DNA of 58,029 nucleotides. Source: Myxococcota bacterium. GTDB lineage: Bacteria > Myxococcota_A > UBA796. The stretch lies in contig JBLHNG010000003.1 of the NCBI GenBank assembly GCA_047621685.1, positions 1 through 58,029 of the forward strand, read 5' to 3'. The notes under the pieces are model-generated. The model worked only from the letters and a program-made list of their open reading frames with translations, was not told where the DNA came from and made no database searches. The position numbers were made by a program, and so were the translations under genes. This document shows positions 25,691-55,763 of this stretch, in pieces (position 1 is the stretch's first letter; every line of letters starts with the position of its first letter).

Positions 25691-26113
25691 TCAGGCCGAA
25701 GGCCGCAGCCGTGTGAGCCCAACCAGCACCCCAATCCCCACAACCCCGCCAATGTGCGGGGCGGCGGCGCTCACCGGATGGCCGGCGAGCAAGACGAGCA
25801 CCAGATCCGCCAGGGGCAGCAGCAGAATCAGCGGCAGCAGCCGACGCTGGGCGACGGGATGGGGGCGCAGCGCGAGCAGGGCGAGGCCGAGGATGAGGTC
25901 ACGGGTGCCGGTGGCCCGCACCCAGGTCGGTGCTTCAGAAGGCACCCCGTAAGTCTGAGAGGACCACTCCGGCGCAACCAGCGCCCCCGCCCCCAGACCG
26001 AGCAGGCCGATGGCCAGGGCGAGGGTGCCGAAGGAGATGAGCGTGTTGGTGGTGGAAGAGGTCACCAGAGGATCATATCGGCATTGTCGACGCAGTCGAG
26101 GATCAGGCAACAC
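25691..26113 (-). CDS. small hydrophobic membrane protein (DUF4267-like)
   Basis: Four hydrophobic segments. A shorter start at GTG 26065 is equally possible. Confidence 0.55.
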   Translation of the reverse strand: MLPDPRLRRQCRYDPLVTSSTTNTLISFGTLALAIGLLGLGAGALVAPEWSSQTYGVPSEAPTWVRATGTRDLILGLALLALRPHPVAQRRLLPLILLLPLADLVLVLLAGHPVSAAAPHIGGVVGIGVLVGLTRLRPSA

Positions 26114-26221
26114 CGCACCTGGGCGAGACCTTCCGATCAGGCCGAAAAATCAGCGACTCAATCGAGCGCTGTGTACACTGAATTCAAGTCAACATCCGGT
26201 AATTTCAATCAGGAACAGTCC

Positions 26222-28715
<2,494 letters not shown>

Positions 28716-28738
<23 letters not shown>

Positions 28739-37673: not shown

Positions 37674-37720
37674 CACCAGTCACCGGGCCGGACAGTATCC
37701 GGCCCGACTGGTGCGTTTTT
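37674..37720 (+). terminator. intrinsic-terminator-like hairpin plus T5
   Basis: CACCAGTC-acc-GGGCCGG acagtat CCGGCCC-GACTGGTG followed by cgTTTTT. It lies 157 nt downstream of the 37517 stop. Confidence 0.5.
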
Positions 37721-37800
37721 GTCTGAGACGGGGTTTTCACCCCCAAGCCCCCCGCTACGCGCTGACATCCTCTCACACAGACTGTCCGTCAGAAGGGGGC
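37690..37800 (+). repeat. family C repeat, left copy
   Basis: ggacagtatcc...gtctgagacggggttttcaccccc...ccgctacgcgctgacatcctctcacacagactgtccgtcagaagggggc. The reverse complement of 38461-38570 matches with few mismatches. Confidence 0.85.
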
Positions 37801-38007: not shown

Positions 38008-38445
38008 ATGTCCAGTACCGCATGGCGCTACTTCGTCCCCTACCAGCCCGACTATCAGGCCGCTCTCGACGCCCTGCGCGCAAAGACCTTCACGCAGGGG
38101 GCCTACCTCCAGCCCTGGACCGAGCGCGGGCTCCCGCCAGTGCCGCCTCCCCAGACCATCGACGAGGCCCTCCAGCGCTGCGGTCCGGAGGGCAGCCACT
38201 CCATCCTCGACATCGTGGCGTTCTCGCTCATCCCGGGGCCTGGGCTGGCCTGCCTCGTGCCACCGGGGGAGCAGATGCGCATCTACGGCACGACGACCCC
38301 CACTCACGAGGACATCTCCGATCACCGCTTCGCCCTGGTCCACACCCTCGACTTCGGACATGCGCGTATTCTCACGGTTTACGACGAGGAGCAGCAGCCT
38401 GTTCGGCTCTACCTGGAGGGACTCACTGGAGCGGAGGAGCTGTGA
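38008..38445 (+). CDS. hypothetical protein (145 aa)
   Basis: High GC3 and no recognisable motifs (MSSTAWRYFVPYQPDYQAALDALRAK...). Bracketed by the family C inverted repeats. Confidence 0.6.
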   Translation: MSSTAWRYFVPYQPDYQAALDALRAKTFTQGAYLQPWTERGLPPVPPPQTIDEALQRCGPEGSHSILDIVAFSLIPGPGLACLVPPGEQMRIYGTTTPTHEDISDHRFALVHTLDFGHARILTVYDEEQQPVRLYLEGLTGAEEL

Positions 38446-38460
38446 GGCTGCGTCCTGCCG

Positions 38461-38570
38461 CCCCCTTCTGACGGACAGTCTGTGTGAGAGGATGTCAGCG
38501 CGTAGCGGGGGGGTTGGGGGTGAAGCCCCCGTCTCAGACAAAGAGCACCAGTCAAGCGGGATAACTGTCC
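38461..38570 (-). repeat. family C repeat, right copy (inverted)
   Basis: See 37690-37800. It begins 27 nt after the stop of the converging CHAT gene and is in the sense orientation relative to that gene. Confidence 0.85.
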
Positions 38571-38596: not shown

Positions 38597-40888
38597 TCAA
38601 GGCACCATCAGCCGAAACATCCCCATGTCCTCCGCCAGCACCGCCGCCCGCCAGGAACCAACCGGGTCCGCAGGGTCCGCATACAGACGCTCCATCAGCG
38701 CACGGCTGTCAGCATCATCGACCGGAATCGTCGCGGCAATGACCGCCTCCCCGCCAGCCAGCAGAAACGCCTGAGCCAGCCCGAGACTCTCCACCGCAAC
38801 CGGGGGAGAGGCTGCACCATCGCAGGTCGAGAGGACAACGGTCTGCGGTGCGCGAGACAGGGTCAGCAAATCACCGACGGTCAGCCGACCGCCGCCGTTG
38901 ACCAGGAACGCGCTGTCGGTCACGATGTTCTCGCGCTCACCATGCCCGGCATAGTGCAGCATCGCGGTGTCTTCCAGCAGCAACAGCAGCGACCTGCGGG
39001 TGACATCGCTGCCCGAGAGCGGGCGCACGACCCTGCCCGCCCGGGTCAGCGCGCCAGTAACCAACGCGGCCTCCGCCCGTGCCCCGGGCAGGTTGAGCCG
39101 GGGATCACTGACGACTGCCGCAGTGTTCTCGATCGGGCGCGGGGGTCGTGGCGGCAGATCGAGGCTATAGCGGACAAGATGATGGGCCAGCAGCGGGCGC
39201 CCCTGGAGCGGGAGCATGTGCAGGTCGATGCGCCTCAGCGTGCCATGTGGCAGCAGCGTGATCACCTCGGCGGATGCGATCTGCTCGGCAAACGGCACCA
39301 GCAGCGCCTCGGCGAGGATCTCTGGAGGAGCGTTGAGGTCGACGGAGGGAATCCGGGCAGTGGTCAGTCCCTCCGAGCTGGCCGCGATCCCCACCCAGTC
39401 CGACCCCAGTGAGAACCACGTCAGCAGCAGCTCGCCGGGATCCGGAGAACGAAGCGAGGCCTCGGGGAGGATGTGCGGGGTGCCAGCATCGAGGGCCTGG
39501 CGGGCAAGCTCCTCCTGCCGACGACGCAGGATCGTCAGGACACGGTTCTGCTCACTGGTGGCCGACCAGTCTCCGGGGGTCACCGCCTCCCGGGCGACGC
39601 GGTAGTCGCGTGCCGCCGACAGCCACCGCTCCCGATCTTCCACGGAGAACCGCTCGGTGAGCAGCCCCTGGAGGAGGAGGAGCCGAGCGGTCCGGATCAC
39701 CACGAGAGCGTCTTCAGGCCGATCGTCCGCCAGCAGCAGGGTCACCAGCAGCCGGTCGGCGGGCAGTCCCCGACTCAAGAAACGATCCCGGCCGTTGTGG
39801 AGTGGGACCAGGAGGCTGTGCTCCAGCAGGACCGCGCGGGCCTCCTTGAGCACCGCGATGGCCTCCGCATGCTGCCCCAGCGACGCCAGGATCTCTCCCT
39901 GGGCCACCAGCGCCTGCCAGCGATGACGCGGAGAGGCCGCACCCGTCGATGCGATCACCCCTTCCATCGCCGAGAGCGCCTCGCCGAGCTGGCCGCGGTG
40001 CTGGTGAAGGCGCCCACGCAGATACGCCGCCCACAGCGTCTCGTCGTGGCGTTCTGGTGCGGCGCTGTTGAGGGCCGACTCCAGGGCATCCAGGTCGCCG
40101 AACTCAAGCGCATCGCGGGCTTGAGTGAGGTGTGTGCGAGAGATCGAGGGACAGTCGATCACTCCCGACAGCTCGATCTCCACCCCGCTCAGCTCAGCGG
40201 CCTCCACCAGCACCCAGCCCCGAGACTCCTCTGCCGCACAGCCATCCTCCGACCGGAGGATCCGGCGCGCCTCCCGGTGGCGGCCCACCGCCGCGAGCTG
40301 CTCCGCCAGCCGAAGCGACACCGGAGTGTTTACGCTGTAAATCATCCGGCCTGAAAGCTGGTTCGCATGACGATAGTGCCTCATCGCGGCCCGATGGTCC
40401 CCCCGGTAGCCCGCCAGATCCCCACGACGGAGCTGGAGCTGCCAGGCAGAGGTCAGATCGCCCGGGAGCCGATCGGTGATGCGCTGGAGGTGTGCTTCCG
40501 CAGTCCCCACATCCCCGTCCGCGATCGCGGCATCGACCTCGGAGAGCCCGGCGAGCACCTGCTGCCGTGTGTCGGTCGTCCCGGTCGTCTTCCCCAGCAG
40601 AAGCCGGCCGATCCGACCGTTGTTGTCCTCGATGACCAGTGTCTCTGCGCCAGACGGCACCGCGACATCCAGCAGCACCCCGCCCCCCTCGATCTGCGAC
40701 ATCGCGCCGACCGGCTGGCCGTCCACCATCACCGACAGCGGCGGCAGGGCCTCGACCCACAGGCGCACCGGCGTGCTCCCCGGCAGACACCGCGGCCCGG
40801 TCGTCACCGCCACACAGCCGTCGAACATCAACGGCAGCGTCGGTGGGTCGGGGGTCTGCATGCAGCTGAGCAGGACGAAGAAGATCAT
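38597..40888 (-). CDS. TPR-like repeat + CHAT (caspase-like) protease domain lipoprotein
   Basis: ATG 40888 overlaps the upstream stop (ATGA). Lipobox MIFFVLLSC. The C-terminal dyad context is LHYAGHGE and VVLSTCDGA. Confidence 0.85.
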   Translation of the reverse strand: MIFFVLLSCMQTPDPPTLPLMFDGCVAVTTGPRCLPGSTPVRLWVEALPPLSVMVDGQPVGAMSQIEGGGVLLDVAVPSGAETLVIEDNNGRIGRLLLGKTTGTTDTRQQVLAGLSEVDAAIADGDVGTAEAHLQRITDRLPGDLTSAWQLQLRRGDLAGYRGDHRAAMRHYRHANQLSGRMIYSVNTPVSLRLAEQLAAVGRHREARRILRSEDGCAAEESRGWVLVEAAELSGVEIELSGVIDCPSISRTHLTQARDALEFGDLDALESALNSAAPERHDETLWAAYLRGRLHQHRGQLGEALSAMEGVIASTGAASPRHRWQALVAQGEILASLGQHAEAIAVLKEARAVLLEHSLLVPLHNGRDRFLSRGLPADRLLVTLLLADDRPEDALVVIRTARLLLLQGLLTERFSVEDRERWLSAARDYRVAREAVTPGDWSATSEQNRVLTILRRRQEELARQALDAGTPHILPEASLRSPDPGELLLTWFSLGSDWVGIAASSEGLTTARIPSVDLNAPPEILAEALLVPFAEQIASAEVITLLPHGTLRRIDLHMLPLQGRPLLAHHLVRYSLDLPPRPPRPIENTAAVVSDPRLNLPGARAEAALVTGALTRAGRVVRPLSGSDVTRRSLLLLLEDTAMLHYAGHGERENIVTDSAFLVNGGGRLTVGDLLTLSRAPQTVVLSTCDGAASPPVAVESLGLAQAFLLAGGEAVIAATIPVDDADSRALMERLYADPADPVGSWRAAVLAEDMGMFRLMVP

Positions 40889-41646
40889 CGCTCGGAGATG
40901 ATGACCTCGCGCTTCCAGAAGGTCCACTGCGGCGGGGGCTCCTCTGCTGCTGCGTCCAGGGTGTCTTCGGAGAAGGTCGCGTGCCACCCCCGGATCGGGA
41001 TCGCGCGCTCCAGGGTGCTGACGGGCCCCGCCGGTCCGACTCCGATCAGCAGGGTGTGGGGCCCAGAGGCCAACGCCAGGTCCTCACCGACGATGCCCCC
41101 CAGTCGGTGTGCGCCGTTGCTGGAGGAAACGTCCAGGTCCATCGGCGCCCACCCATCCGGGCCACGGGTGAACACCACGACCTGTGTGGAGCTGTCGGGC
41201 TGGGTGCGGGGTCGGAGGATGAGGCGCATCCGGGAGCCGATCGAGTAGGCCATGACCTCGTCTGGATCGGAGTCGCTCAGGGAGCGCTCGGGCAGATCAC
41301 CGGGGCGGGCGATCAGCCGATAGACCGGCGGCTCTGCGGACGGCGTGCTGGCGACATACCCGAGCCGCACCACCATCACTGCCGCCATCACTGCCACCAG
41401 ACGCGGCAGCCAGGGCCACCACCGACGGCGCGGTTTCTGCGGCACCCGAGGGGGTGGAATCACGGCCAGCTCTGCACGAATCCGACGTGCAAAGCCAGAT
41501 CCGAGGGGAGCCAGGGCGATCGCAGCAGCCGGGTCCGACTCCGCGAGCGCCGCTGCCTCCTCCGCGCTCAGCTCCCCGGCAGCCAGCTGATCCCAGCGGG
41601 CGTCGAGGTGCTCCATGTCGATCTCATCATCCAGGTCTCGTTTCAT
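40885..41646 (-). CDS. single-pass membrane anti-sigma-factor-like protein
   Basis: Lies 3 nt downstream of the sigma gene. It has a short acidic cytoplasmic N-terminus, the TM segment WWPWLPRLVAVMAAVMVV, and a roughly 150-aa extracytoplasmic domain. Confidence 0.6.
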   Translation of the reverse strand: MKRDLDDEIDMEHLDARWDQLAAGELSAEEAAALAESDPAAAIALAPLGSGFARRIRAELAVIPPPRVPQKPRRRWWPWLPRLVAVMAAVMVVRLGYVASTPSAEPPVYRLIARPGDLPERSLSDSDPDEVMAYSIGSRMRLILRPRTQPDSSTQVVVFTRGPDGWAPMDLDVSSSNGAHRLGGIVGEDLALASGPHTLLIGVGPAGPVSTLERAIPIRGWHATFSEDTLDAAAEEPPPQWTFWKREVIISER

Positions 41647-41649
41647 GCC

Positions 41650-42327
41650 TCACCCTGCCTCGGCCCGAAGCCGCATCAGTTCCTGCCTCAATGCCTCGAC
41701 CAGTCGGCGACGCCACTGGTAGATCGCCGCCGCGCTGCGACCGGTCTGCTCCTCGATGGCCGACACCGGGAGCCCCTCCAGAAACAGCAGCCGCATCATC
41801 TCTGTGCCCAGCGGATTCTGGACCGACCCCACTGCCGCAAAGCACCGCATCAGCAGGTCTCGGCGGATCAGGGCGTCCTCCAGTCCCATCTCACTCGCCG
41901 TCTGGGCCAGGATCTCCCCGGACAGCAGCGTCTCGGTCTTCCAGCGCTGCCGCAGCAGGGAGATCGTGCGCCGCCGGGCCACCACGCCGATGAAGCCGAC
42001 CAGCGGAACCCCGTGGCGGCTCGACCAGGTCCGGAGGATCCGGCAGTCGTCCTCGAACAGCGACAGGCTGATCTCCTGCACCAGGTCCTCGACCTCCATC
42101 CGGAGGTTGTGTCGGACCGACGCTGGGCCATGGCGAAGCACCGCTCGGGCGACCCGGGCGTGGATCACCGGCAGCAGGCAGATCACCAGACGCTCCCTTG
42201 CGATGGTGTCGCCGCGAAGCGTCTCGACCAGGAGCTGCTCAGGGGTGTTGGACATCACCGCCTTCGTTGTAGGGGAGGCCTCAGCCGTCGGCCCGGCCCA
42301 GGCAAACAGCGCCCGGAGCGTGCTCAT
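41650..42327 (-). CDS. ECF-type RNA polymerase sigma factor
   Basis: ATG 42327 overlaps the upstream stop (ATGA). Region 2 DLVQEISLSLFED and region 4 LLFLEGLPVSAIEEQTGRSAAAIYQWRRR. Confidence 0.8.
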   Translation of the reverse strand: MSTLRALFAWAGPTAEASPTTKAVMSNTPEQLLVETLRGDTIARERLVICLLPVIHARVARAVLRHGPASVRHNLRMEVEDLVQEISLSLFEDDCRILRTWSSRHGVPLVGFIGVVARRRTISLLRQRWKTETLLSGEILAQTASEMGLEDALIRRDLLMRCFAAVGSVQNPLGTEMMRLLFLEGLPVSAIEEQTGRSAAAIYQWRRRLVEALRQELMRLRAEAG

Positions 42328-42626
42328 GGCTCGAACCGATAGCCCACACCATAGACGGTCTGGAGGTGATGGGGGTGGCGAGGATCCGTCTCCAGCTTGC
42401 GCCGAAGTCGCTGAATGGTGGCGTATACCGTTCGTGATTGCGTCCCCGGCAGGTAGCCCCACACCTCCTCAAGCAGCTCAGCCTGGCTGAACAGCTCCCC
42501 GGGATGCCGCGCAAACCACTGCATCAGCCGGTGCTCGGTCCGGGTCAGCCGGAGGATCTGATCCGCGCGGCGGATCTCACGCCGCCTCAAGTCGATCTCC
42601 GCATCATCCAGGGCAATCACATCCAC
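42324..42626 (-). CDS. stand-alone OmpR/PhoB-type winged-helix DNA-binding domain protein
   Basis: LTRTEHRLMQWFARHPGELFSQAELLEEVWG...TVYATIQRLRRKL...LQTVYGVGYRF. No receiver domain. GTG start with AGGAGG 6 nt upstream. Confidence 0.8.
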   Translation of the reverse strand: MDVIALDDAEIDLRRREIRRADQILRLTRTEHRLMQWFARHPGELFSQAELLEEVWGYLPGTQSRTVYATIQRLRRKLETDPRHPHHLQTVYGVGYRFEP

Positions 42627-42698
42627 ACCTGACCTCCTGGCAACCCCTTCGCCAGCAGGACCGGTTTTCTGACAATCGTCTCTGAGAAAGTTGAGCGA

Positions 42699-44159
42699 CT
42701 ACAGATCACACCCGGTGAGAAGCGCGGGATCACGGGTCACCACGATCGGGGTGGCTTTCACCTCCAGGTGCTCAGCATCCTGGGTGGTGACCTCACCAGA
42801 GGCGCCGTCCATGACCCACAGCGTGCCGGAGAGCTGAGGGGAGAAGTCGATGGTGGCTGTGTGGACCCGATCCGACCACAGCAGGTAGACCGGTCCGAGC
42901 GCCTCTCCGACCGCCATCTCACCGGGGAAGCCCAGCTCATCGAGCGGCTCGCGGGTGATCGCCCGACCGCTCAGCGCCACGCCATTCACCCCGTCAGCCG
43001 GCGCGATGGTTCGGCGATACTCAGTGTCCTTCAGCCCGCAGATGACCCCCTCAAGGGCATAGGGCAGGTCCACATCGTCGCCCGCCAGCCAGCCGTCCCA
43101 GTCAAACGAGAACGCGACCTCTCCGGGGTGAGCCGCCTCCCATGTCTCAAAGCGCTCCAGCACCAGGGAGTCGGTGGCCGGCTCAGCGAGACCATCGAGG
43201 CGGGTCAAGGCGCCCAGCTCCCGGATCAGGCTCTCCACCGGGAGGCGGTTGGCTGCGTTGAGGTCGAGGTGGGTCATGACGCCGAACTGCCAGACGATCT
43301 CGTCGGACCCACTGAGCGCCTGCTGCCGACGCTCGGCCTCCAGCACCAGCAGGTGGCGGCGGATCTGATCCGGGGCGGAGTAGATCGCGTGGTGTCCCTG
43401 CGGGGGTTCCTGGGAGATCTGCCCCAGCGCGCTGGTGGTGATCGACTGCCCCTCGGGATCCGAGCCGGTGTAGGTCCCGGCCGCGCGGCGATAGGGGGTG
43501 AGCGGCTTGATGTTCCAGGGGGTGTACGACAGGCGCTCCCCGAGGTTGTGGCTGACCTCGATGCCGTACTCCACCTCCAGCGCATCCAGGAGGGCAAGCT
43601 GCGCGGGGGTGTCGATCCCGGTCGCGGCGTCCACTCGGAGCGGTGCCTGCCCGACAGCGGCCTCGAACGCGGCGACATGATCTGCCCAGGTCTGCCGCAC
43701 CCAGGACTCGCTCGCCTCATTCGCTTCGTACTCCAGCCAGCCGCTCCCACCCGGCTCCAGCAGGAAGCGGTGAAAATGAACCGACAGCTCGTGGCCGGTG
43801 TCGAGCAGGTCGTGGAGGTGGGCGGTGTCGTCGTATCGAATGGCGTCGAGGGCATACTCGCCGTTGATCTGCACGCTGAGGAGCATGCCCTCGGACTCCG
43901 CCAGCTCGGCCAACCAGAGCAGCTCGGTCTGGTGAGCGTCGTAGCGTTCTTCCCTCCGCGCCTCGACCTCGTCACCGGTCGTGTCGAGGCCGTAGTTGTG
44001 ACCATGCACACTGATCGTCAGCAGGATGGGCTCCGCAGACCACTCCTGCTCCTCAACCTCCAGCTCCGAGCAACCAGAGACAAACATCAAGCCAGGGACG
44101 AGCATTTTGATCACCAACCACCTCCTGAGTTGAAGGTTAGTCGGGGTTGTCCGCGTCAT
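42699..44159 (-). CDS. lipoprotein, unknown function (possibly a deacetylase/GH57-like metal-dependent fold)
   Basis: Lipobox GLMFVSGC. His-rich motifs ISVHGHNYG and SVHFH. The functional guess is weak. Confidence 0.65.
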   Translation of the reverse strand: MTRTTPTNLQLRRWLVIKMLVPGLMFVSGCSELEVEEQEWSAEPILLTISVHGHNYGLDTTGDEVEARREERYDAHQTELLWLAELAESEGMLLSVQINGEYALDAIRYDDTAHLHDLLDTGHELSVHFHRFLLEPGGSGWLEYEANEASESWVRQTWADHVAAFEAAVGQAPLRVDAATGIDTPAQLALLDALEVEYGIEVSHNLGERLSYTPWNIKPLTPYRRAAGTYTGSDPEGQSITTSALGQISQEPPQGHHAIYSAPDQIRRHLLVLEAERRQQALSGSDEIVWQFGVMTHLDLNAANRLPVESLIRELGALTRLDGLAEPATDSLVLERFETWEAAHPGEVAFSFDWDGWLAGDDVDLPYALEGVICGLKDTEYRRTIAPADGVNGVALSGRAITREPLDELGFPGEMAVGEALGPVYLLWSDRVHTATIDFSPQLSGTLWVMDGASGEVTTQDAEHLEVKATPIVVTRDPALLTGCDL

Positions 44160-47399: not shown

Positions 47400-49823
47400 T
47401 CAGTAGACGATTGGAGCAGCCCAGATCCGGGCTGGCAGCCCCTCACGGCGGAGCTGTTGGCAGACCAGAGCGGTGACCCGGGCTGGATCGTTAAACGGCC
47501 AGTGAGTCATCATGCACTGCACAAAGCGCCCCATCTCGCGGTCCTGGACCGGCCATCGGGTGGCGATCACTGCGGATGCACCCGCGCTGAGGAAAGCGCC
47601 GGCCATCGACCGCTCGACACCTCGGTGCAGCGCTGAGGCACCGGTCGCGCAGCCCGACAGCAGCACGATGGGGTTGCCGGAGAGCGGAAGGTTAGAGATC
47701 TCAGGTGGCCCGATGAGGCCGTCGGCCATCACCAGCAAGGGCATGCCACGCTCTCGGCGGGAGTGAACGCCGATGTGCAGCAGGCCGACCGGGGGAAGCT
47801 CCAGGAGCGCCCGGTGGGTCACCTCGCTTCGGCGGAGGAACACATCTGCCGAGGCAACCTCCGCATCTGCCATCGGGAGGTCTCCGTGGGCGTCCGCCAG
47901 ACTGGCGACCGCAGCCGGCAGCACCATGGGCTGTGCGCCTCGGCGACGACGGGGACCCGCGAGATCAATGAACTGCGGGGGACGGGCATCGCCGACCTGT
48001 GCAGCGATGTACGGCATCGGAGCGTTTGCCAGCAGGCTATTGCTGCCCAACAGGATCTGTCCTGTCGGGATCCCATCGGGGAACAGGATCTCAGCCAGCC
48101 GGATGGCAACCCTGGGGGTTCCGCCTGTGAGGGCTTCCTGCTGGCTGGTGTGGACCAGGCGCAGGAACTCATCCCGACTCATGCGGATGTTTCGGACCGA
48201 TGCTCCGGGCTGACCGCTGAGCACCAGCAGTCCCTGGGGCACCGCGAGGATCCCCATCAGCGAGATCCGATCGTCTGCGGCATCTGCGGTGTGCAGGAAG
48301 TACAGGCGCATCAGGTGACGGGCAGCAGCAGCATGAGCCTCGATGGCCAGATTCAGCAGCGCAATCAGGGTGTGCAGCGTGCTGGCATGGACCCGACCGT
48401 CATCGTGTTGGTGCAGCTCGTCCTCAACGGCGGTGATGACCTGCGCCCAGTCGGTCACGCGACCAGAGCGCTGCGTGACCAGGATCCGGAGCAGGATCCA
48501 GCTCAGCCCTCGACTGCTGAGGGTCTTCAGCTGCTCGACCTCTTCGTTGAGCGCCTGCAGCCGGACCTGAGCCTCAGAGAGCTGTCCGCTGCCGACAAAG
48601 GCCTCGATGAGGTAGCCGCGGGCCTCCATCGCGCTGTACGGAGACAGCTTGTCGATCCAGGGAGCATTCAGGGACCGGAGGGCGACATCGTAGAGACCGA
48701 GCGCGACGTTGAGGCGCAGGCCGATCTGTCCCAGGCGCGCGACCTCTTCAGGGGCGGCAATCTGTGCCATCGCCAGCCACCGGGCCGCGGCCTCCAGCTC
48801 CCAATTGTTCAGTGCTGCCTGGGCCTGCTCCCGGCAGACCCAGGCGGCGTTTCGGTTGTCCAGGGCCACCCGACGGACGAGCGCCTGAAGCACCGACTCC
48901 GCAGCGGGCTGAAACTGGAGACAGTTCAAGGCAATCGCCAAACCCAGCGCCGCCTGAATCTCACCGGCAGTGTCCTTGACTTCTATCCCCCGCTCCAGCG
49001 CCTCCCGATAGAGACGAGACGCTTCAAAAAAGCTGCCCCGCTGGCCCAATTTTCCCGCTCTATAGATCAGCGCGATGGTCTCTTCATCCGCCGGCTTGAG
49101 CCGCTCCGCCGTATACAACACCCGGACATCGGAGGGCTCAAAGCCGGTGTCGAGGTTTAGCTCTGCGGCGTGCAGGCAGTGCTCGGCGCCCTGGAGGAGG
49201 TCTGTGAGGCTCGTGGAGTCGTGGGAGCGGTAGACGTCAGAGAGCCACAACCCCCAGAGGATGGGATCGACGGCCTGGGAGGAGGACAGCGCGACGATGC
49301 GGCGCGTGCCCTCAGGCAGGTGGGCCAGCTCCAGAGACACACCAGGGCGCTCCCGGCTGAGCTGGTGGACCAGGATCGGCGGCCCACCCTGCATCACCGC
49401 GTAGAGCAGCAGATGACAGGCCAGGGGATCGTGAGCCAGGGCCCCGCGCTCGGTCCGGTGAAGCTCCAGCGCGCCCTGAGAGCGATAGTTTCGGTAGAGG
49501 CTCTGAGAGGTCATCTCCGGAAACGGTGCCAACCCCTGGGTCTGTGCCAGCAGGAGGGCGGGAGCCGGAGGAGCGGTGCGAGCTGCCGTCCGGGCCTGGA
49601 GCGCCTTGAGGGAAGGCGGCTTCGGCATGGAAGCAACCACGGTCGACTCGCGGACCATCGCACCGAGCTGCCCAAGCTGCTTCTCTAGTTGGAGCTGGCC
49701 CTGACACTCACTGCAGCCCTGAGCGTGCTGACGTGCCGGTGCGGGCCAGACTCGGAATCCGGTCCACTCCAGGGTTCCCTGGAGAATTTGCTCTTCAATC
49801 AACTTGTGGGTCAACTCAGTCAT
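47400..49823 (-). CDS. zinc anti-sigma (ZAS, HxxxCxxC) N-terminal domain fused to TPR-like repeats and a CHAT protease domain
   Basis: ATG 49823 overlaps the sigma stop (ATGA). H33-AQG-C37-SE-C40. C-terminal LHIGVHS and IVLLSGCATG dyad context. No signal peptide or TM segment. Confidence 0.85.
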   Translation of the reverse strand: MTELTHKLIEEQILQGTLEWTGFRVWPAPARQHAQGCSECQGQLQLEKQLGQLGAMVRESTVVASMPKPPSLKALQARTAARTAPPAPALLLAQTQGLAPFPEMTSQSLYRNYRSQGALELHRTERGALAHDPLACHLLLYAVMQGGPPILVHQLSRERPGVSLELAHLPEGTRRIVALSSSQAVDPILWGLWLSDVYRSHDSTSLTDLLQGAEHCLHAAELNLDTGFEPSDVRVLYTAERLKPADEETIALIYRAGKLGQRGSFFEASRLYREALERGIEVKDTAGEIQAALGLAIALNCLQFQPAAESVLQALVRRVALDNRNAAWVCREQAQAALNNWELEAAARWLAMAQIAAPEEVARLGQIGLRLNVALGLYDVALRSLNAPWIDKLSPYSAMEARGYLIEAFVGSGQLSEAQVRLQALNEEVEQLKTLSSRGLSWILLRILVTQRSGRVTDWAQVITAVEDELHQHDDGRVHASTLHTLIALLNLAIEAHAAAARHLMRLYFLHTADAADDRISLMGILAVPQGLLVLSGQPGASVRNIRMSRDEFLRLVHTSQQEALTGGTPRVAIRLAEILFPDGIPTGQILLGSNSLLANAPMPYIAAQVGDARPPQFIDLAGPRRRRGAQPMVLPAAVASLADAHGDLPMADAEVASADVFLRRSEVTHRALLELPPVGLLHIGVHSRRERGMPLLVMADGLIGPPEISNLPLSGNPIVLLSGCATGASALHRGVERSMAGAFLSAGASAVIATRWPVQDREMGRFVQCMMTHWPFNDPARVTALVCQQLRREGLPARIWAAPIVY

Positions 49824-50398
49824 GGCTGTTGTTCCTCAAGCGCAGCTCGGAGCAGCACTCGGATTCGATGAAGTCGGCTTCGCACAGCCAATGGACTCAG
49901 CGGGGGCTCCAGCTGGGCTGCAATCTCCGCAGGCTTCAGCTGCTGCTCGACACTCATCCAAAAAATCATGGGATCAGGCGGCTCCAGGAAGCGAACCACG
50001 TCGAGGATGCTGCGAGCGGTCTCGTCGCGCTGGACGGGGTCGGGCATCTCATAGGAGGTGGTAAACCGGGCGAGATAGCGCGCCTGACGTTCCGCATGGC
50101 GCTGTGTGTTCCGACGGACCCGCATCGCCTCGTAGCGGGCGAAGGTCGCAAGCCAGCCGCCCAGACTGCGCCCATCAAACCGCTGCCAGTTCTCCAGCAT
50201 CAGGGCGAAGACATTCTGGAGCTGCTCCTCGGATTCCTCCTGAGAGAACCCCTTTCGCAGAAAGATCGCCATCAGCTCTGGCCCATGAACCTCCCAGGCA
50301 AGCGGAACCACCGGCCCCACATCTCCGCTCGCAACAGCTTCATCGAGCAGACGTCTCAGCTCATCCGGTGACCGATACATGGGAGAACTCTGACTCAT
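49820..50398 (-). CDS. ECF-type RNA polymerase sigma factor (divergent)
   Basis: ATG 50398 overlaps the receiver-gene stop (ATGA). Region-2-like LQNVFALMLENWQRFDGRSLGGWLATFARY and region-4-like KPAEIAAQLEPPLSPLAVRSRLHRIRVLL. Confidence 0.7.
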   Translation of the reverse strand: MSQSSPMYRSPDELRRLLDEAVASGDVGPVVPLAWEVHGPELMAIFLRKGFSQEESEEQLQNVFALMLENWQRFDGRSLGGWLATFARYEAMRVRRNTQRHAERQARYLARFTTSYEMPDPVQRDETARSILDVVRFLEPPDPMIFWMSVEQQLKPAEIAAQLEPPLSPLAVRSRLHRIRVLLRAALEEQQP

Positions 50399-50826
50399 TC
50401 GGAGTGTGCAGACTCCGCGCTGATCAGATTTCGCAGGTGGGAGAACGAGAATGGCTTGCACAGGATCGGTCGGCCGAGGGTCTTGAGGTGTGCCTCGGTG
50501 TCCCAGGAGCATCCGCCGGTCATGAACACCGTCCGAGACTGCTGCTCTGGGGACAGGCGGGCGTAGAACGTCGGGCCATCCATCACCGGCATGACGACAT
50601 CAGAGACGATCATGTGTGGAGTGCCATGCACTGCGATGTCGGCGAGGGCATCGACAGCGGATGCGAACAGGCTGACAGAGTAGTCCTCAAGCAGCTCCCC
50701 GAGCAGCATCCGAATCACCGGGTCATCATCGACAACCAGGACTCGAAGGGACGCCTGGGGCATCTGACAGTGATGACTTGATGATGGCTGTGGAGACACC
50801 TGCTCCCTCCGGTTTAAGGCGTTCAT
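50395..50826 (-). CDS. stand-alone response-regulator receiver domain protein
   Basis: RVLVVDDDPVIRMLL...MIVSDVVMPVMDG...VFMTGG...CKPF. ATG 50826 overlaps the upstream stop (ATGA). The ATG at 50763 is an alternative start. Confidence 0.8.
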   Translation of the reverse strand: MNALNRREQVSPQPSSSHHCQMPQASLRVLVVDDDPVIRMLLGELLEDYSVSLFASAVDALADIAVHGTPHMIVSDVVMPVMDGPTFYARLSPEQQSRTVFMTGGCSWDTEAHLKTLGRPILCKPFSFSHLRNLISAESAHSE

Positions 50827-51536
50827 AGTAAGCCCAGGGCGCTGTTGATTTGGTTCTCGAGGCCATCGAAGGCCTGACGAATCTGGCGGAGCTTGTCAGA
50901 CAGGGTCTGAAGCTGGGCCGCTGACAGGAAGCTGAGTCGATCCAGATCACCAAACAGCAGCCCCTCTCTGGTCACTGCCTGCTCCAGCCGATTGATCTCG
51001 GTGACGAAGGCCGGTGGCTGTGGAGGAGACGGGCGAAGGGCACGCACCTCAGCCTCCAGCTGCCGAACGGTCCAGCATCCATTCTCTGCGCGCTTCAGCA
51101 ACCTCAGCTGGTCGTCATCTGAGATCGAGAGCACTGCGCGAAAGTGCGACACCCCGAGGTTGGACCAGTCTTCCCCGATGCGCTGGAGCAGGGCGTAGAT
51201 CTGCATCGAGCGGTGGAGGACCGAGCGGCTGATGGCCACCCCATTGATCCGGGTCAGCTTCGCCAGCTTTCGGATCGAGGCCTCCTTGGCTCCCCGAGCA
51301 CGCCAGGCCTCAAGATCACCGTCGTAGAGATCCTCGATGAGGATCCGGCCGACGTTGAGATGGAGCTGAAGCCCGGAGAACCGGACCATTCGGCCAAGTC
51401 GCATCGCGGTGCGCTTGCACTCGACATCGGAGAAATCAGAGGAGAGCCCGGGGGCGGCTTCCTGAACAGGTTCTATGTTTGGTGGACTCACATATAGACA
51501 GAGCCAAAGTCGCCCTATCGTTGCACGCCTTGACAC
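50823..51536 (-). CDS. putative DNA-binding protein (ParB-HTH-like)
   Basis: GVSHFRAVLSISDDDQLRLLKRAENGCWTVRQLEAEVRAL resembles the ParB/KorB HTH region. The first 44 codons have low GC3, so the true start is probably ATG 51404. Confidence 0.55.
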   Translation of the reverse strand: MSRRATIGRLWLCLYVSPPNIEPVQEAAPGLSSDFSDVECKRTAMRLGRMVRFSGLQLHLNVGRILIEDLYDGDLEAWRARGAKEASIRKLAKLTRINGVAISRSVLHRSMQIYALLQRIGEDWSNLGVSHFRAVLSISDDDQLRLLKRAENGCWTVRQLEAEVRALRPSPPQPPAFVTEINRLEQAVTREGLLFGDLDRLSFLSAAQLQTLSDKLRQIRQAFDGLENQINSALGLL

Positions 51537-51575
51537 TCTCCTGACATTCTAATCCCAAGCCTGAGGGAAACGCCG

Positions 51576-53129
51576 CTATTGATCGATGCTGGCATTCAGC
51601 TCAAAGCCGGTGATGGTCTGAAGCTCAGCGGTCTGTGCGTCGTAGAAGCTCAGCCGCCCCAGCTCGTGCGCCTGGCTGGCGTAGGCGGTGTGAGAGCCTG
51701 GGAAGACCCCGATGTGCGCCGGGTTGCTGAGCAGGTTGATCTCATCGAGCAGCATCGCGTCGAGGTCCACCGACTCCAGGTAGGGCAGGTCTTCGAGGTA
51801 GAAGAAGGCGTACTGCCCATCTTCTGAGAAGGTGATCCCGGCGGGAACGGCGGACAGCCGGAGGGCGTTGGTGAAGTAGTCGTCGAGGTCGACGATGGTG
51901 ATCGCTGGCGCACCCTGAAACGGGGAGTCCTCGTCGATGTCCTTGTGGTCTTCCTTTGGATGGACGATCAGCGCTGAGCGCACCCCGGGGGCCATGTGAA
52001 CGCTCTCGATGGACTTGACGGTGCCGTGGGTGGTGAACGCATCGGTCTGGTCGGGGGCCAGGAGATCCCAGCTGACAAACCGCGGCTCCCCGGCGGCGGT
52101 GCTGTAGAGGATGGCGGTGTCTCCGGTGTCGGAGATGCTGATGCTGCCGAGCACGGTGTCGACGGGCAGGGGCATGACCTCCGGCAGCGCCTCCGGCACG
52201 GCGAGGTCGTAGATCCACACCTCTGAGGATCCCCGGGCCACTGCCATCGCCCGGGTGCCATCGGGGGTGACATCGAGGTCGGTGGGGTTGTCTCCGGCGG
52301 CCAGGACATCGGTCTCTCCGCTGACGAGATCGACGAGGATGAGGTCGGAGACTCCGTACTGCCGCACGATGGCGTACTGCCCGTCGGGGGTGACCAGGAC
52401 CTCCTCGGCCTCCGGTGGCTCCACGGTGTCCTCGATCTGGATGCGGGTCAGCACCGGCTCGTCTCCGCGCAGGTCGAGGTGGACCAGCCAGGAGTCGGAG
52501 ACCAGCACGGCGTCCCCGGTCTGCGAGAACTGGATCTGTGCCGGCTCGAAGCCCACCGACTGCGGCCAGTCCACCCCGCTGGTGATGTCCACCACGCTGA
52601 CCTCGCTGTAGGACCATGCACCGCTGGTGTCGTGGTCGGCGGGGGCCTCGGCCTGGTAGTAGCACAGCGCCCAGCGGCCATCGGGGGAGAGCTGGAGCTG
52701 GTTGAGGTGGGGGCGAATGGGCACCGCCTGGAGCTCCAGGCTGGTGGCGTCGACGATGTGGACCTCATCGAGTCCGGTGTCGAGGATGACCACCGCACCA
52801 TACGGATCCGAGGCGACCATGACCGAGGGGTTGGGGCCGATCTCGGCGGTCAGGGCGGAGAGGTCGGCGATGGAGACCCGGGTCAGCGAGTTGCGGTCGG
52901 GGTTGGCGATGTAGATGTTGTCGTCTACTGCGACCGGCTCCAGGGCGATGTAGGGGGACTCCTCCTCAGGATCGTAGCCGTCGTCGTAGGTGTCGGTGTC
53001 GGTGTCGGCGTCGGTGTCGGCGTCGGTGTCCGCATCGGTGTCGCTGTCGCTGTCGGCCTCATCGCTGGACACGGAGGCGGCGTCCTTGCCTTTACACGAC
53101 AGGAGCATCAAGAGGGTGATTGCACGCAT
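51576..53129 (-). CDS. beta-propeller lipoprotein (YncE/lactonase-like repeats)
   Basis: Lipobox LLMLLSC, a (D-S/T/A)n linker, and repeated ...SPDG..A.V... blades. Confidence 0.75.
   Translation of the reverse strand: MRAITLLMLLSCKGKDAASVSSDEADSDSDTDADTDADTDADTDTDTYDDGYDPEEESPYIALEPVAVDDNIYIANPDRNSLTRVSIADLSALTAEIGPNPSVMVASDPYGAVVILDTGLDEVHIVDATSLELQAVPIRPHLNQLQLSPDGRWALCYYQAEAPADHDTSGAWSYSEVSVVDITSGVDWPQSVGFEPAQIQFSQTGDAVLVSDSWLVHLDLRGDEPVLTRIQIEDTVEPPEAEEVLVTPDGQYAIVRQYGVSDLILVDLVSGETDVLAAGDNPTDLDVTPDGTRAMAVARGSSEVWIYDLAVPEALPEVMPLPVDTVLGSISISDTGDTAILYSTAAGEPRFVSWDLLAPDQTDAFTTHGTVKSIESVHMAPGVRSALIVHPKEDHKDIDEDSPFQGAPAITIVDLDDYFTNALRLSAVPAGITFSEDGQYAFFYLEDLPYLESVDLDAMLLDEINLLSNPAHIGVFPGSHTAYASQAHELGRLSFYDAQTAELQTITGFELNASIDQ
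52989..53058. repeat. 6/12-nt tandem repeat encoding (D-T/A/S)n
   Basis: (ggtgtc/ggcgtc)n on the plus strand, inside the propeller lipoprotein gene. Confidence 0.85.
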
Positions 53130-53165
53130 ATCAGTGGCTCCTCAGTGCTCAGGGTAGCACCGGAC

Positions 53166-53777
53166 TCAGTAGATGTCGTGGAGGGTCGAGAAGTCCGCAC
53201 ACTCAGTGAGTTCCTGCTCCCCGCTGACTGTGCCGGTGCCGGTGTAGGTCTCGAAGCCCTCGTAGATCAGGGTGCCGGAGAAGCCGGTCATCTCCATCGC
53301 CATGGCGTAGCTGCCCTCGGAGGGCGTGATGGTGAGGTCGTAGAGATCGGGGTGGCCCTGCCAATGCTGCCCCGACCAGTAGTAGTCCTCGTCCCCGGAG
53401 TCTCGCTCCTCGTAGACGAACGCACCGTCGCCGAGGGTGCAGGTGATCGAGAAGCCAGCCAGGGCGACCGGATCATCGGTCGCGGAGAAGCCGTCGCTCC
53501 AGTCGGGCAGCGACATGAAGAGGTTGCAGTGGTCACCGCTGAAGATCCCAGAGGGGTCGTCGGTGTTGCTGCCCGGGGTGAGGTAAGTCACCATCTCCTC
53601 GCAGCCGACGTCGGGGACGCTGGAGAGGTAGGCGATGAACTGGCCGTCCTGAGCGAGACCGTAGGCGCTCTGGATCGCCACGGTCCCCTCCCCGTCGATG
53701 TCTGGAAGGCTGATGGTGCCAGCCAGACCGGCGGCGTCTTCTTCTGCAGAGCTGCAGGCGAGCAGGAGGATGAGCAT
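53166..53777 (-). CDS. lipoprotein, unknown function
   Basis: Lipobox MLILLLAC. 203 aa with good GC3. Confidence 0.7.
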   Translation of the reverse strand: MLILLLACSSAEEDAAGLAGTISLPDIDGEGTVAIQSAYGLAQDGQFIAYLSSVPDVGCEEMVTYLTPGSNTDDPSGIFSGDHCNLFMSLPDWSDGFSATDDPVALAGFSITCTLGDGAFVYEERDSGDEDYYWSGQHWQGHPDLYDLTITPSEGSYAMAMEMTGFSGTLIYEGFETYTGTGTVSGEQELTECADFSTLHDIY

Positions 53778-53824
53778 GGGAGGACTCCGCGTGAGTGACT
53801 ACGGACATTGTGAACCACTGGGTC

Positions 53825-53970
53825 CTCTGTGGTGTACAGGAAGGTCCTGTGAGAGAGTGCAGCCCCCCTCGCCTGCAATCGCCGCTCCCCTGTACTACCC
53901 GCCTTGCGGCCCCACCCGGACACCCGCTCACCACCCGCAGTCTCACAGGACCTTCCTGCACACCACAGAG
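53825..53970 (+). repeat. 146-bp MITE-like element with 29-bp terminal inverted repeats (family B copy 3)
   Basis: ctctgtggtgtacaggaaggtcctgtgag (53825-53853) pairs with ctcacaggaccttcctgcacaccacagag (53942-53970) with one mismatch. The interior matches family B. Confidence 0.7.
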
Positions 53971-53998
53971 CGCCGGATAGTTCCCACAGGTCAGCCCC

Positions 53999-55450
53999 TC
54001 AGGGGGTGATGCGAAAGTCGAAGGCGCCTTCGGCATCGGTGAGGGTGGAGCCGTAGAATACCCCGTCCTCATCATAGACCTCCACGATAGAGATCCCACC
54101 CCCAGCATCCGGTCGTCGGACGCTTCCCCTGAGGCGAACCCCGTCACTGAGAGCCCAGTCGCCGCTGCTCGGGGCACTGGGATTGAGCAGCTCCCGGCGG
54201 GTCACCGCAGCCTCCCCCCGGGTGGGGGTGAGCCAGACATTGAGGGGCACGTCGGGCACTGAGAGGCTGAACCCCCCGGTCTCGTCGGTGTAGGCGGTGT
54301 AGGTGGCGTGGTTGAAGCCCTGCTCGACGAAGGTGACCAGGACATTGGCCGCAGGCTGCGCGCTGGAGTCGACCACCCTCCGCTCCAGCACGACCTGCTC
54401 GGTGAGCTTGAGGTTGCCGAGGTTGACCTCGCTGCCCTCGACGGTGAGAGCCTGCTCGAGGGGGGCGGTGAGGTCGGTGTCGTCAGGGGGCGGGATGATC
54501 TCGATGCTCCACTCGCCGGGCAGGGCGTAGACCAGGAAGCCCCCGCTCTGGTCGGTCTCGGTCTCGACGACCATGGTGCCCCGGGTGTCGACGAGGGAGT
54601 CGGCGGTGAGCCGGACGATGGCGTTGCTCATGGTCTGTCCGTCCGCAGTGCGGGGCACCCCCCGGACCAGCACCGGCTCGATGATGCCGACGTCGATGTC
54701 CACCCGCACACCGATGTCCTCTTTGAGGGTGATCGGCTCCTGGATGGTCGGCATGGTGGTGCCGGTCACCGGCTCGATCTGCACGAGGTAGTCGCCAGGA
54801 GCGGCCCGGAGCGTGTAGAAGCCTGCGGCATCGGTCTGGGTGGCAAAGCCCACCACGCCAGTCGCGGCGTCGATGAGCCGAACCGTGACGCTGAGCGTCT
54901 CGTCGTCGCTGGTGGTGACCGTGCCGTAGATCGGATCGCCGTAGCCCAGGTCAATCTCGCCGATGTCGGCTTCTCCGCTGACCTGGAGCCCCTCCTCCAC
55001 CACCATCGGCAGCCCCAGCTCCTCGGGCAGCACCGAGAGCTGGTAGCCATCCCCTGCAGGAAGGCTGAGGGTGAAGGAACCGTCTTCCCCGGTCTGCACA
55101 CTGGAGGAAGCGATGGTGCCGGGCTGCCCCAGGGTGACGGTGCTGAGGATGGGCACATCTCCCGCACCTGGCACGGTGATGCTGTAGGGGTTGGCAGCGA
55201 AGCCGGTGACCGTGCCGGTGATCGTGACCGTGGGGCGCAGCGACAGGGTGAGGTCCTGCCAGCCGGACTGCTCATCGAGCCACAGCGACTGAGCGAGCAG
55301 GTCGTCGCCAACCTCCACCGTGGGCAGCACATCGATGCGGAGCCGGGCGGTGTCGAAGTCATCGGGGGACAGCACCTGATCCCCCCCGGTGTCTGCGGTA
55401 AACGCCAGCTCGTTGGCCCCTGGCGCACAGCCACCCACCATCAGCCCCAC
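53999..55450 (-). CDS. lipoprotein with tandem carboxypeptidase-regulatory-like (Ig-like beta-sandwich) domains
   Basis: Repeated G.V.D..G.P......V...... units (e.g. GTVTTSDDETLSVTVRLID, GSVRRPDAGGGISIVEVYDEDG). Lipobox MVGGC. The N-terminus is probably longer than the listed GTG start (see finding). Confidence 0.7.
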   Translation of the reverse strand: MGLMVGGCAPGANELAFTADTGGDQVLSPDDFDTARLRIDVLPTVEVGDDLLAQSLWLDEQSGWQDLTLSLRPTVTITGTVTGFAANPYSITVPGAGDVPILSTVTLGQPGTIASSSVQTGEDGSFTLSLPAGDGYQLSVLPEELGLPMVVEEGLQVSGEADIGEIDLGYGDPIYGTVTTSDDETLSVTVRLIDAATGVVGFATQTDAAGFYTLRAAPGDYLVQIEPVTGTTMPTIQEPITLKEDIGVRVDIDVGIIEPVLVRGVPRTADGQTMSNAIVRLTADSLVDTRGTMVVETETDQSGGFLVYALPGEWSIEIIPPPDDTDLTAPLEQALTVEGSEVNLGNLKLTEQVVLERRVVDSSAQPAANVLVTFVEQGFNHATYTAYTDETGGFSLSVPDVPLNVWLTPTRGEAAVTRRELLNPSAPSSGDWALSDGVRLRGSVRRPDAGGGISIVEVYDEDGVFYGSTLTDAEGAFDFRITP

Positions 55451-55763
55451 CGCAAGAACGCAGCGAGCGGCACTCTGGAGGGTTGTGGTGGGTGAGAGGG
55501 ACAGGACGAATTCTCGGGTGGTGCAGTGGATCGATGACGCCTGCTCATAGGATAAGCAAGAAATGTGCCTCTCGTTTGAAGCTTGACAACCCCAGACATC
55601 GTTGCTGGGAAGGTAGTTTACTACTTAAGAATCTGGACAACGGCTTCGCTGTAACCCTATGTAACCGCACCGCCGTTCTGGACTCCATAGACTATCAGGG
55701 TCCGATCCGATCCCTGCTCATCCTCGACCAAGGGGCTGGGAAAACCTCTGTCTGGAGTCCCAG

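Follow-up and report, generated by a model that had tools for sequence, protein, structure and literature searches.

Can a caspase-fold enzyme act as the site-1 protease in regulated intramembrane proteolysis? This question is raised by a locus of a Myxococcota bacterium (GCA_047621685.1, contig JBLHNG010000003.1), from which a stretch of 58,029 nt (the window) was analyzed. Four successive open reading frames (ORFs) on the minus strand at 38597-42626 encode an OmpR-type winged helix-turn-helix (wHTH) protein, a divergent extracytoplasmic function (ECF) sigma factor, a single-pass membrane protein, and a protein that combines tetratricopeptide repeats (TPR) with a CHAT domain and starts with a lipobox. 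Comparison with related genomes established that the core of this module consists of three genes, for the sigma factor, the anti-sigma-like membrane protein and the TPR-CHAT protein, usually followed by a gene for an S8 subtilase. Our favored reading, which we hold tentatively and at a probability just short of even, is that the locus belongs to a widespread trans-envelope signaling module in which the TPR-CHAT protein, a lipid-anchored cysteine protease, would cut the anti-sigma-like membrane protein that probably restrains the ECF sigma factor.

The core genes, their products and their conservation

The sigma factor gene (41650-42255, minus strand; 41650-42327 as first given) encodes a protein of 201 aa. 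A profile built from eight sigma-like proteins of CHAT-linked loci matched the solved ECF sigma factor 9isn_F over positions 11-203 and thus over both domains (E=1.5e-12), and motifs of the sigma-2 and sigma-4 type are visible in the family alignment. The NCBIfam model TIGR02937 (sigma70-ECF) was matched at E=1.3e-9 with 37.9 bits against a curated cut-off of 42.9; seven of the eight family members match it, below the curated threshold. The single-sequence match to Pfam Sigma70_r2 is weak (E=0.006). On the strength of these profile matches, the product is identified as a divergent ECF (group IV) sigma factor. A search upstream of 82 sigma family members did not find a shared ECF-type promoter dyad. 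In about 30 Acidobacteriota loci (L002, L004 and L019-L091), the sigma start is preceded at a constant spacing (26-42 nt) by a TATAAT or TATACT box of the form 'CGCCC TATAAT GGAAAT' or 'TCTGTyC TATACT GAA', and TATAAT is found in 18 of the 82 sequences where 0.4 would be expected. The box looks like a housekeeping-type -10 element placed before the module and suggests constitutive expression, which would fit a sensor rather than an induced effector.

A gap of 3 nt (41647-41649), read directly from the DNA, separates the sigma gene from the gene of the membrane protein (40885-41646, minus strand, 253 aa). The protein has a single hydrophobic segment (Kyte-Doolittle peak of 1.90 at residues 83-101) with the sequence RVPQKPRRR on its N-terminal side; five of the 15 residues that precede the segment are basic, versus one after it. 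Hydropathy, this positive-inside charge pattern and an AlphaFold2 (AF2) model predict an N-in/C-out topology with one transmembrane (TM) helix and divide the protein into a helical cytoplasmic N-domain (residues 1-~75), the TM segment (~77-100; DNA 41347-41418) and an immunoglobulin (Ig)-like periplasmic beta-sandwich (~105-253). The ~153 residues after the hydrophobic segment agree with the extracytoplasmic domain of roughly 150 aa described in an earlier note on this DNA. The model (predicted local distance difference test score, pLDDT, of 61) contains four short N-terminal helices of low confidence, a TM helix at 80-100 and the Ig-like beta-sandwich, and a structure search with the periplasmic domain returned generic Ig-like folds only. 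A hidden Markov model search of 1.84 billion representative sequences yielded 974 relatives, 221 of them at E≤1e-10 and almost all 240-290 aa long. No Pfam family was matched by the window protein or by sets of 8 or 50 members, a single member reaching zf-HC2 at E=0.099, and sequence searches of the PDB returned no match to the protein. The NCBIfam model NF052375 ('anti-sigma factor') was matched weakly by the window protein (E=1.2e-4) and by 9 of 50 members, far below its cut-off. The family shares an N-domain consensus, LDxRWDxLAAGxLSxEE…AFxPL, and an essentially invariant juxtamembrane motif on the periplasmic side, Y109-x-L-x3-G-G-x4-R121-[G/S]. R121 (codon 41284-41286) is kept in 86 of 86 sequences and lies in a low-confidence loop of the AF2 model. 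The protein is called anti-sigma-like here on account of its position, size, topology and helical N-domain, and not of homology.

An ATGA overlap (40885-40888), which is kept in the closest relatives, joins the membrane protein gene to the gene of the TPR-CHAT lipoprotein (38597-40888, minus strand, 763 aa). Pfam searches recovered the CHAT domain at E=1.9e-23 together with TPR matches, and the AF2 model (mean pLDDT 75) shows an N-terminal beta-sandwich, a TPR solenoid (residues ~105-470) and the CHAT domain (~485-763). The best Foldseek matches in the PDB are Csx29 (8eey_B, 4.6e-13) and DdvA (8rw5/8rot_A, ~1.5e-12), followed by separases. A single-sequence phmmer search of PDB chains returned no CHAT or TPR-CHAT structure, so that no sequence-level match to DdvA or Csx29 was obtained. 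The catalytic His649 (codon 38942-38944) and Cys689 (codon 38822-38824), whose codon positions were checked, are conserved in 65 of 65 and 64 of 64 homologues, respectively, and this invariant dyad points to an active enzyme. Nearly all homologues from other genomes carry canonical lipoprotein signals (…LLLAC, …LLVAC, …ALGC) and a few carry type I signals. A Cys pair in the motif (E/V)YxGCxxxxxxGPxC, typical of an oxidizing compartment, follows 15-30 residues past the signal. In the window protein the lipobox is LLSC, with the codon of Cys9 at 40862-40864, and the Cys pair in the N-terminal beta-sandwich corresponds to C25 (40814-40816) and C34 (40787-40789). Because of the signal peptides of the homologues and the conserved Cys pair, the family is predicted to be exported rather than cytoplasmic, mostly lipid-anchored, and thus to share a compartment with the ~150-aa domain of the membrane protein. 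A longer N-terminus starting at GTG 40927 or 40987, which would have supplied a canonical signal peptide, was also considered. It was ruled out because the three closest relatives (L001, L010 and L013) have a stop codon in this frame, six codons ahead of the ATG, and the start at 40888 given in the earlier note is therefore correct.

Related loci were retrieved with the sigma factor alone (narrow alignment) and with one genome per GTDB species, which identified 98 relatives; 80 of them were retained for analysis. These are labeled as 52 Acidobacteriota (mostly Thermoanaerobaculia), 21 Myxococcota/'Deltaproteobacteria' and 7 others, and the closest sigma relative among them is found in a Myxococcota metagenome-assembled genome (70% identity). 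Profile searches of six-frame ORFs were used to locate the neighboring genes; seven of the 80 loci are truncated, leaving 73 informative ones. A full-length TPR-CHAT gene lies directly downstream in 59 of the 73, a frameshifted one in one more, and a TPR-CHAT gene within 6 kb in 8 further loci (68 of 73 in total), while none was detected in the available DNA of five. The anti-sigma-like gene adjoins the sigma gene in every locus with sequence at this place. Word-indexed protein searches returned few close relatives; every contig with one, including independent metagenome contigs, carries the sigma-like, membrane protein and CHAT genes in the same order, often with 4-nt overlaps. The association of the three genes is thus strongly conserved across species genomes.

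Rare gene fusions, from three representative clusters, were also detected. P0006 (Polyangium sp. 6x1), P0056 and P0068 each join the N-domain, the TM segment and the Ig domain to a whole mature CHAT protein, and the polypeptide link stands in for the lipid anchor of the latter. Membrane protein and CHAT protein are encoded by separate genes in the window and in ~98% of the relatives. Two further composite proteins are probably frameshift or gene-calling artefacts: in P0054 (L012, 3402-4517) the sigma C-terminus runs into the anti-sigma-like protein, and in P0129 the anti-sigma-like protein runs into the signal peptide of CHAT. Both nonetheless confirm the adjacency of the genes.

Clustering of all neighboring genes revealed a subtilase-like gene of the S8 family (~690 aa) directly after the CHAT gene in 53 of the 80 genomes and in metagenome loci (for example L002, 8898-10982, and L014, 10299-12512, within the range of loci L014-L091). 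Its product retains the motifs DTxPT, HGY, AAAGN and TGSSV, with the D, H, N and S residues conserved, and has an N-terminal lipobox-like Cys. The S8 profile found no match anywhere in the 58-kb window or in L001 and L013. The canonical form of the module accordingly has four genes, with the S8 gene as the fourth member instead of the wHTH gene. Since the wHTH gene is confined to the subclade of the window, the four-gene operon of the earlier note is a lineage-specific form of the three-gene core.

Proposed release of the sigma factor and its alternatives

Synteny, tight gene coupling, the gene fusions, a common compartment and the invariance of the dyad all support the view that the membrane protein and an active CHAT protease are physical and functional partners in the periplasm. 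A precedent for such a pairing is DdvA-DdvS of Myxococcus xanthus, in which a transmembrane anti-sigma factor with a periplasmic TPR-CHAT region was proposed in 2024 to cleave itself in trans before RseP acts (PMC11506125). Starting from the observed gene identities, predicted topology, synteny, fusions and dyad conservation, we infer the binding of the sigma factor, a cleavage event, its site and a signal, which would be linked as follows. As long as the system is at rest, the sigma factor would be held by the cytoplasmic N-domain of the membrane protein. The CHAT protease would be activated by a cue in the periplasm, probably a protein that binds to the TPR solenoid, and would then cut the periplasmic part of the membrane protein (site-1). 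A site-2 protease would complete intramembrane proteolysis and release the sigma factor. Separases cut after Arg in unstructured motifs and craspases after Met or Leu. As R121 is invariant and lies in a low-confidence loop, the juxtamembrane sequence GGxxxxR121-[G/S] is a candidate site for the first cut. A site-1 cut by the CHAT protease followed by the action of a site-2 protease, as in the model of the earlier note, is plausible and the most economical reading of the module. Neither a cytoplasmic location of the CHAT family nor a lack of neighborhood conservation, two findings that the earlier note had named as refuting, was borne out.

Several observations count against this reading or amend the earlier note. 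The overlapping four-gene operon on which the earlier note had built is present as four ORFs in the DNA, but its conserved part comprises three genes; of the three junctions, the 3-nt gap and the ATGA at 40885-40888 are real, whereas the ATGA at 42324-42327 is probably not a gene junction. The CHAT lipobox was found as described, with the N-terminus MIFFVLLSC and in an exported family, but the leader of the window protein has only eight residues before the Cys and no basic n-region. As this leader is far shorter than usual, the export of the window's own CHAT protein is less certain than that of the family, even though the subclade keeps a hydrophobic stretch and lipobox, M-I-(F/I)-(F/L)-x-L-L-(S/G)-C, at 67% overall identity. 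The N-domain of the membrane protein contains neither His nor Cys and therefore lacks the HxxxCxxC motif of zinc-binding anti-sigma factors, to which the protein does not belong, and Pfam and PDB profile searches with this domain returned no significant match to an anti-sigma domain (ASD). ASDs without zinc are known. The S8 protein found in 53 of 80 relatives may be an equally well-placed site-1 candidate, a substrate of the CHAT protease or an output of the system. No RNA-Seq data that contain the DNA of the window were found; this DNA was detected only in DNA runs of ice metagenomes. For DdvA itself, the CHAT activity has never been demonstrated (PMC11506125). Finally, the equal stoichiometry of the gene products that the earlier note had derived from the overlaps does not follow, as an overlapping stop and start permits translational coupling but does not by itself yield equal stoichiometry.

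The presence of the S8 gene gives weight to an alternative in which the CHAT protein does not make the site-1 cut. It could instead be a sensor or co-regulator that binds the Ig-like domain, as an RseB-like shield or in a relay of the type formed by TonB-dependent transducers and FecR, with another protease (S8, DegS or Prc) making the site-1 cut and CHAT acting on some other substrate, for example the S8 zymogen or the incoming signal. An S8 lipoprotein with intact D/H/N/S motifs follows CHAT in the majority of genomes, the bulky TPR-CHAT domain of DdvA is a steric block to RseP (PMC11506125), and transducers are known to protect anti-sigma factors from proteolysis (PMC11637429). A subtilase and a CHAT-domain protein are likewise paired in the context of the actinobacterial group ECF54, for which proteolytic control has been proposed and which, in the summary of Huang et al. 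2015 given in PMC8999054, is described without an anti-sigma factor. However, the subclade of the window keeps the sigma factor, the anti-sigma-like protein and CHAT with no S8 gene in 58 kb, and S8 is therefore dispensable for the core. In addition, the invariance of the dyad shows catalysis to be important, and no exported protein other than the membrane protein is universally co-encoded and so available as a substrate. This alternative is judged somewhat unlikely.

A different view of the same gene order would make CHAT an output, with an ordinary envelope-sensing switch of sigma and anti-sigma factor turning on a TPR-CHAT (and S8) regulon, for instance in remodeling, predation or nutrient acquisition. 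ECF operons often hold target genes, and neighbors may be regulators or targets (Casas-Pastor et al.); two adjacent secreted proteases resemble an effector set, and the host phyla Myxococcota and Acidobacteriota are rich in secreted proteases. Yet the fusions of anti-sigma-like protein and CHAT and the conserved 4-nt overlap favor a physical partnership over a downstream target, the TPR-CHAT proteases described to date act as highly specific switches and do not degrade proteins in bulk, and the housekeeping-type box of ~30 Acidobacteriota loci suggests constitutive rather than sigma-induced expression, which together make this view improbable in our estimation. It is also conceivable that the membrane protein is not an anti-sigma factor at all and merely serves as partner or anchor of CHAT, in which case the sigma factor would be controlled in another way, for example by transcription through the wHTH protein or by direct proteolysis of the kind suggested for ECF54. 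The lack of significant ASD homology in the searches above and the low AF2 confidence for the N-domain are in line with this possibility, as is the statement in the account of PMC8999054 that ECF54-type sigma factors with a subtilase/CHAT context are thought to have no anti-sigma factors. Against it stand the position of the gene directly after the sigma gene, at a 3-nt gap or overlap, in essentially all loci, the conserved helical cytoplasmic domain of ~75 aa in an N-in topology, and the weak yet repeated NF052375 matches in 9 of 50 members. Moreover, an exported protease would be unable to reach a cytoplasmic sigma factor directly, and this last explanation is considered very improbable.

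The favored reading, site-1 cleavage by CHAT, can be extended to a periplasmic cascade of two proteases, which we regard as unlikely in its full form. The subtilase would act on CHAT, or the reverse, in a relay of zymogen activation by which a protein cue from outside the cell would lead to a cut of the anti-sigma-like protein at the invariant GGxxxxR-[G/S] loop. Such a cascade would be a general 'caspase-type' route of trans-envelope signaling in Acidobacteriota and Myxococcota, with DdvA as a rare fused offshoot, and the lineage of the window would have been rewired by dropping the subtilase and adding a constitutively active PhoB-like wHTH protein as co-output.

The wHTH gene and the surroundings of the module

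The wHTH gene (42324-42626, minus strand, 100 aa) encodes a stand-alone DNA-binding protein of the OmpR/PhoB type without a receiver domain (Pfam Trans_reg_C, E=2.7e-24), and the protein aligns solely to the C-terminal effector domains of response-regulator models. It starts with GTG, preceded at 6 nt by AGGAGG (42633-42638). Among 90 loci, the gene was found in just four, the window, L001, L010 and L013. The protein, a PhoB-like effector domain that lacks the inhibitory receiver, is probably a constitutive DNA-binding factor, and it could serve as an autoregulator or a co-output of the module.

The link between this gene and the sigma gene was re-examined. The ATGA at 42324-42327 is physically present between the wHTH stop and the sigma ORF as originally given. 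In the closest relatives, L001 and L013, this position reads GTGAGCATG, and the ATGA is not kept. The following 72 nt share 56-60% identity with L001 and L013, and substitutions are spread over the three codon positions without a third-position bias (13/9/10). The flanking coding DNA, compared with the same two loci, shows the third-position bias of coding sequence in both the wHTH gene (85% identity, 5/7/34) and the body of the sigma gene (78%, 17/10/39). A conserved GAGG/AAGG-CGGTG-ATG element precedes the second in-frame ATG (42255), and more distant sigma homologues start where this ATG stands (MSNTPEQLL…). Because of the flat substitution pattern, the unconserved ATGA, the conserved element and the N-termini of distant homologues, the sigma protein most likely starts at ATG 42255, 72 nt downstream of the ATGA start, which leaves a spacer of 68 nt after the wHTH gene. 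The ATGA would then probably be accidental, and the segment 42256-42323 (minus strand), which the earlier note had counted as the first 24 sigma codons, is a probable non-coding spacer. The alternative start at the overlap (ATG 42327, 225 aa) is unlikely in view of the substitution pattern and the homologue N-termini. The G+C content at third codon positions is high in the 72-nt stretch before ATG 42255, and the reassignment is therefore not absolute.

The intergenic leader of the wHTH gene (42627-42698, minus strand) contains, besides the AGGAGG Shine-Dalgarno sequence, a conserved block of 29 nt at 42648-42676, ATTGTCAGAAAACCGGTCCTGCTGGCGAA. The block is unique within the window and is kept in L001 and L013, although ~120 nt of neighboring intergenic DNA are missing from the window. 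The leader may serve as promoter or operator of the operon, and the block is a candidate for the operator. A scan of the leader upstream of the wHTH gene found no sigma-70 consensus promoter, and no Rfam matches were obtained in the module region. At a distance of 72 nt on the upstream side of the wHTH gene, and in the same orientation, lies the gene of a predicted lipoprotein of 486 aa (42699-44159, minus strand; …LMFVSGC…) that matched no Pfam, NCBIfam or PDB entry. Its homologues were found just in L001 and L013, at the same position, and its co-conservation with the module is thus restricted to the subclade of the window.

On the other side of the module, directly downstream of the CHAT stop codon, lies an inverted repeat of 83 nt (37718-37800 and 38460-38542, 96% complementary, two copies in the window) that flanks an ORF of 145 aa (38008-38445). 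This unit may be a small inserted cassette at a place where the relatives hold other genes.

The window contains a second pair of sigma and CHAT genes on the minus strand at 47400-50512. The ECF-like sigma factor (49820-50512; Sigma70_r2 E=2.4e-5, sigma70-ECF E=2.3e-8) overlaps by 4 nt the gene of an 807-aa protein (47400-49823), which combines an N-terminal motif resembling that of zinc-binding anti-sigma factors (H33-x3-C37-x2-C40) with a C-terminal CHAT domain (E=1.5e-11; motifs HIGVHS and LSGCATG) and has no TM segment. By its domain composition, the protein looks like a cytoplasmic fusion of anti-sigma factor and CHAT. Neither its N-domain nor the second sigma factor had a sequence match in the PDB. 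Upstream of this sigma gene runs a co-directional series of genes (50823-55450, minus strand) for a ParB-HTH-like protein (50823-51536), two predicted lipoproteins whose linkers are rich in Asp and Thr (51576-53129 and 53166-53777) and a protein with a CarboxypepD_reg domain (53999-55450). The arrangement recalls the carboxypeptidase/subtilase/CHAT context described for ECF54. The remaining surroundings (801-4178, 8553-10109, 25754-28738 and 55665-58028) are typical of Myxococcota and include two Ser/Thr kinases (one with AAA_16), a pair of M16 peptidases and large proteins with MopE-type copper-binding and FG-GAP repeats.

Relation to known systems and significance

The closest known system is DdvA. 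Both systems pair an ECF sigma factor and a membrane-bound anti-sigma or anti-sigma-like protein with a periplasmic TPR-CHAT region of the separase/craspase fold that has a His-Cys dyad, the structural match extends over ~710 columns (Foldseek E ~1.5e-12), and Myxococcota are among the hosts of both. The proposed logic, with CHAT as the site-1 protease followed by RseP, is also the same (PMC11506125). In DdvA, however, the ASD, the TM segment and TPR-CHAT form one polypeptide, whereas they are divided here between two proteins, with CHAT anchored by a lipid and not through the TM helix of the anti-sigma factor. The module studied here further lacks the CHCC/HxxxCxxC zinc ASD, it has an Ig-like periplasmic domain in place of the long linker and scaffold of DdvA, and the Foldseek identity is 16%, with no CHAT or TPR-CHAT structure matched in the PDB at the sequence level. 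It is not flanked by an island of cyclic oligonucleotide-based antiphage signaling (CBASS) or CRISPR genes, and PADLOC gave only partial matches to BovA (CHAT-domain). It occurs in Acidobacteriota and Myxococcota, whereas DdvA was reported from several Myxococcota species and one Comamonas (PMC11506125). As the anti-sigma-like protein and TPR-CHAT are encoded separately, the module is a split variant and not a member of the DdvA family. Two Myxococcus CHAT proteins (P0027 and P0025) were ruled out as DdvA by their signal peptides, the lack of an ASD and the wrong dyad positions.

Craspase, the type III-E CRISPR system of Cas7-11/gRAMP, Csx29, Csx30, Csx31 and RpoE, likewise couples a TPR-CHAT protease genetically to an ECF sigma factor, and Csx29 is the best structural match of the window's CHAT protein. 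There it is established that the protease cuts the sigma-binding inhibitor Csx30, a cut that frees the sigma factor. Craspase is cytoplasmic, activated by RNA and bound to a Cas effector, in contrast to an exported protease with a membrane protein as its presumed substrate. No cas-like genes were found among the large ORFs of the window or in the related loci, and the likeness to Craspase is structural only. With DegS/RseA/RseP/sigmaE the module would share its logic only, namely a single-pass anti-sigma factor from which an extracytoplasmic site-1 cut and then a site-2 cut free the ECF sigma factor; the components are not homologous, and the site-1 cut would be made here by a lipoprotein of the clan CD cysteine proteases in place of a PDZ serine protease. 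The pairing of CHAT and subtilase in ECF54 is the same as in 53 of the 80 relatives, but that group is actinobacterial, and none of the 80 listed of the 98 sigma relatives is labeled Actinobacteria; this comparison was made on the published description.

A description of the split module was not found in the literature searched; the sigma group may already be catalogued, since the ECF Hub descriptions were outside the comparison. The principle of a CHAT domain as site-1 protease was already proposed for DdvA in 2024 (PMC11506125), and what the present analysis adds is a widespread split variant of the DdvA-type system, an unrecognized family of anti-sigma-like proteins and an S8 partner. The pairing of CHAT and anti-sigma-like proteins is much broader than this precedent, with ~970 representative clusters of the anti-sigma-like protein and with relatives of the sigma factor in the genomes of at least 98 species from two phyla. 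The anti-sigma-like protein constitutes an unannotated family without a Pfam model, and the S8 subtilase is a recurrent partner of the module. Most relatives encode the protease and the presumed substrate as two proteins, which makes the question of a caspase-fold site-1 protease directly testable with two purified components or by simple genetics, for which cultured relatives such as Pyxidicoccus sp. 3LFB2 and Polyangium sp. 6x1 are at hand.

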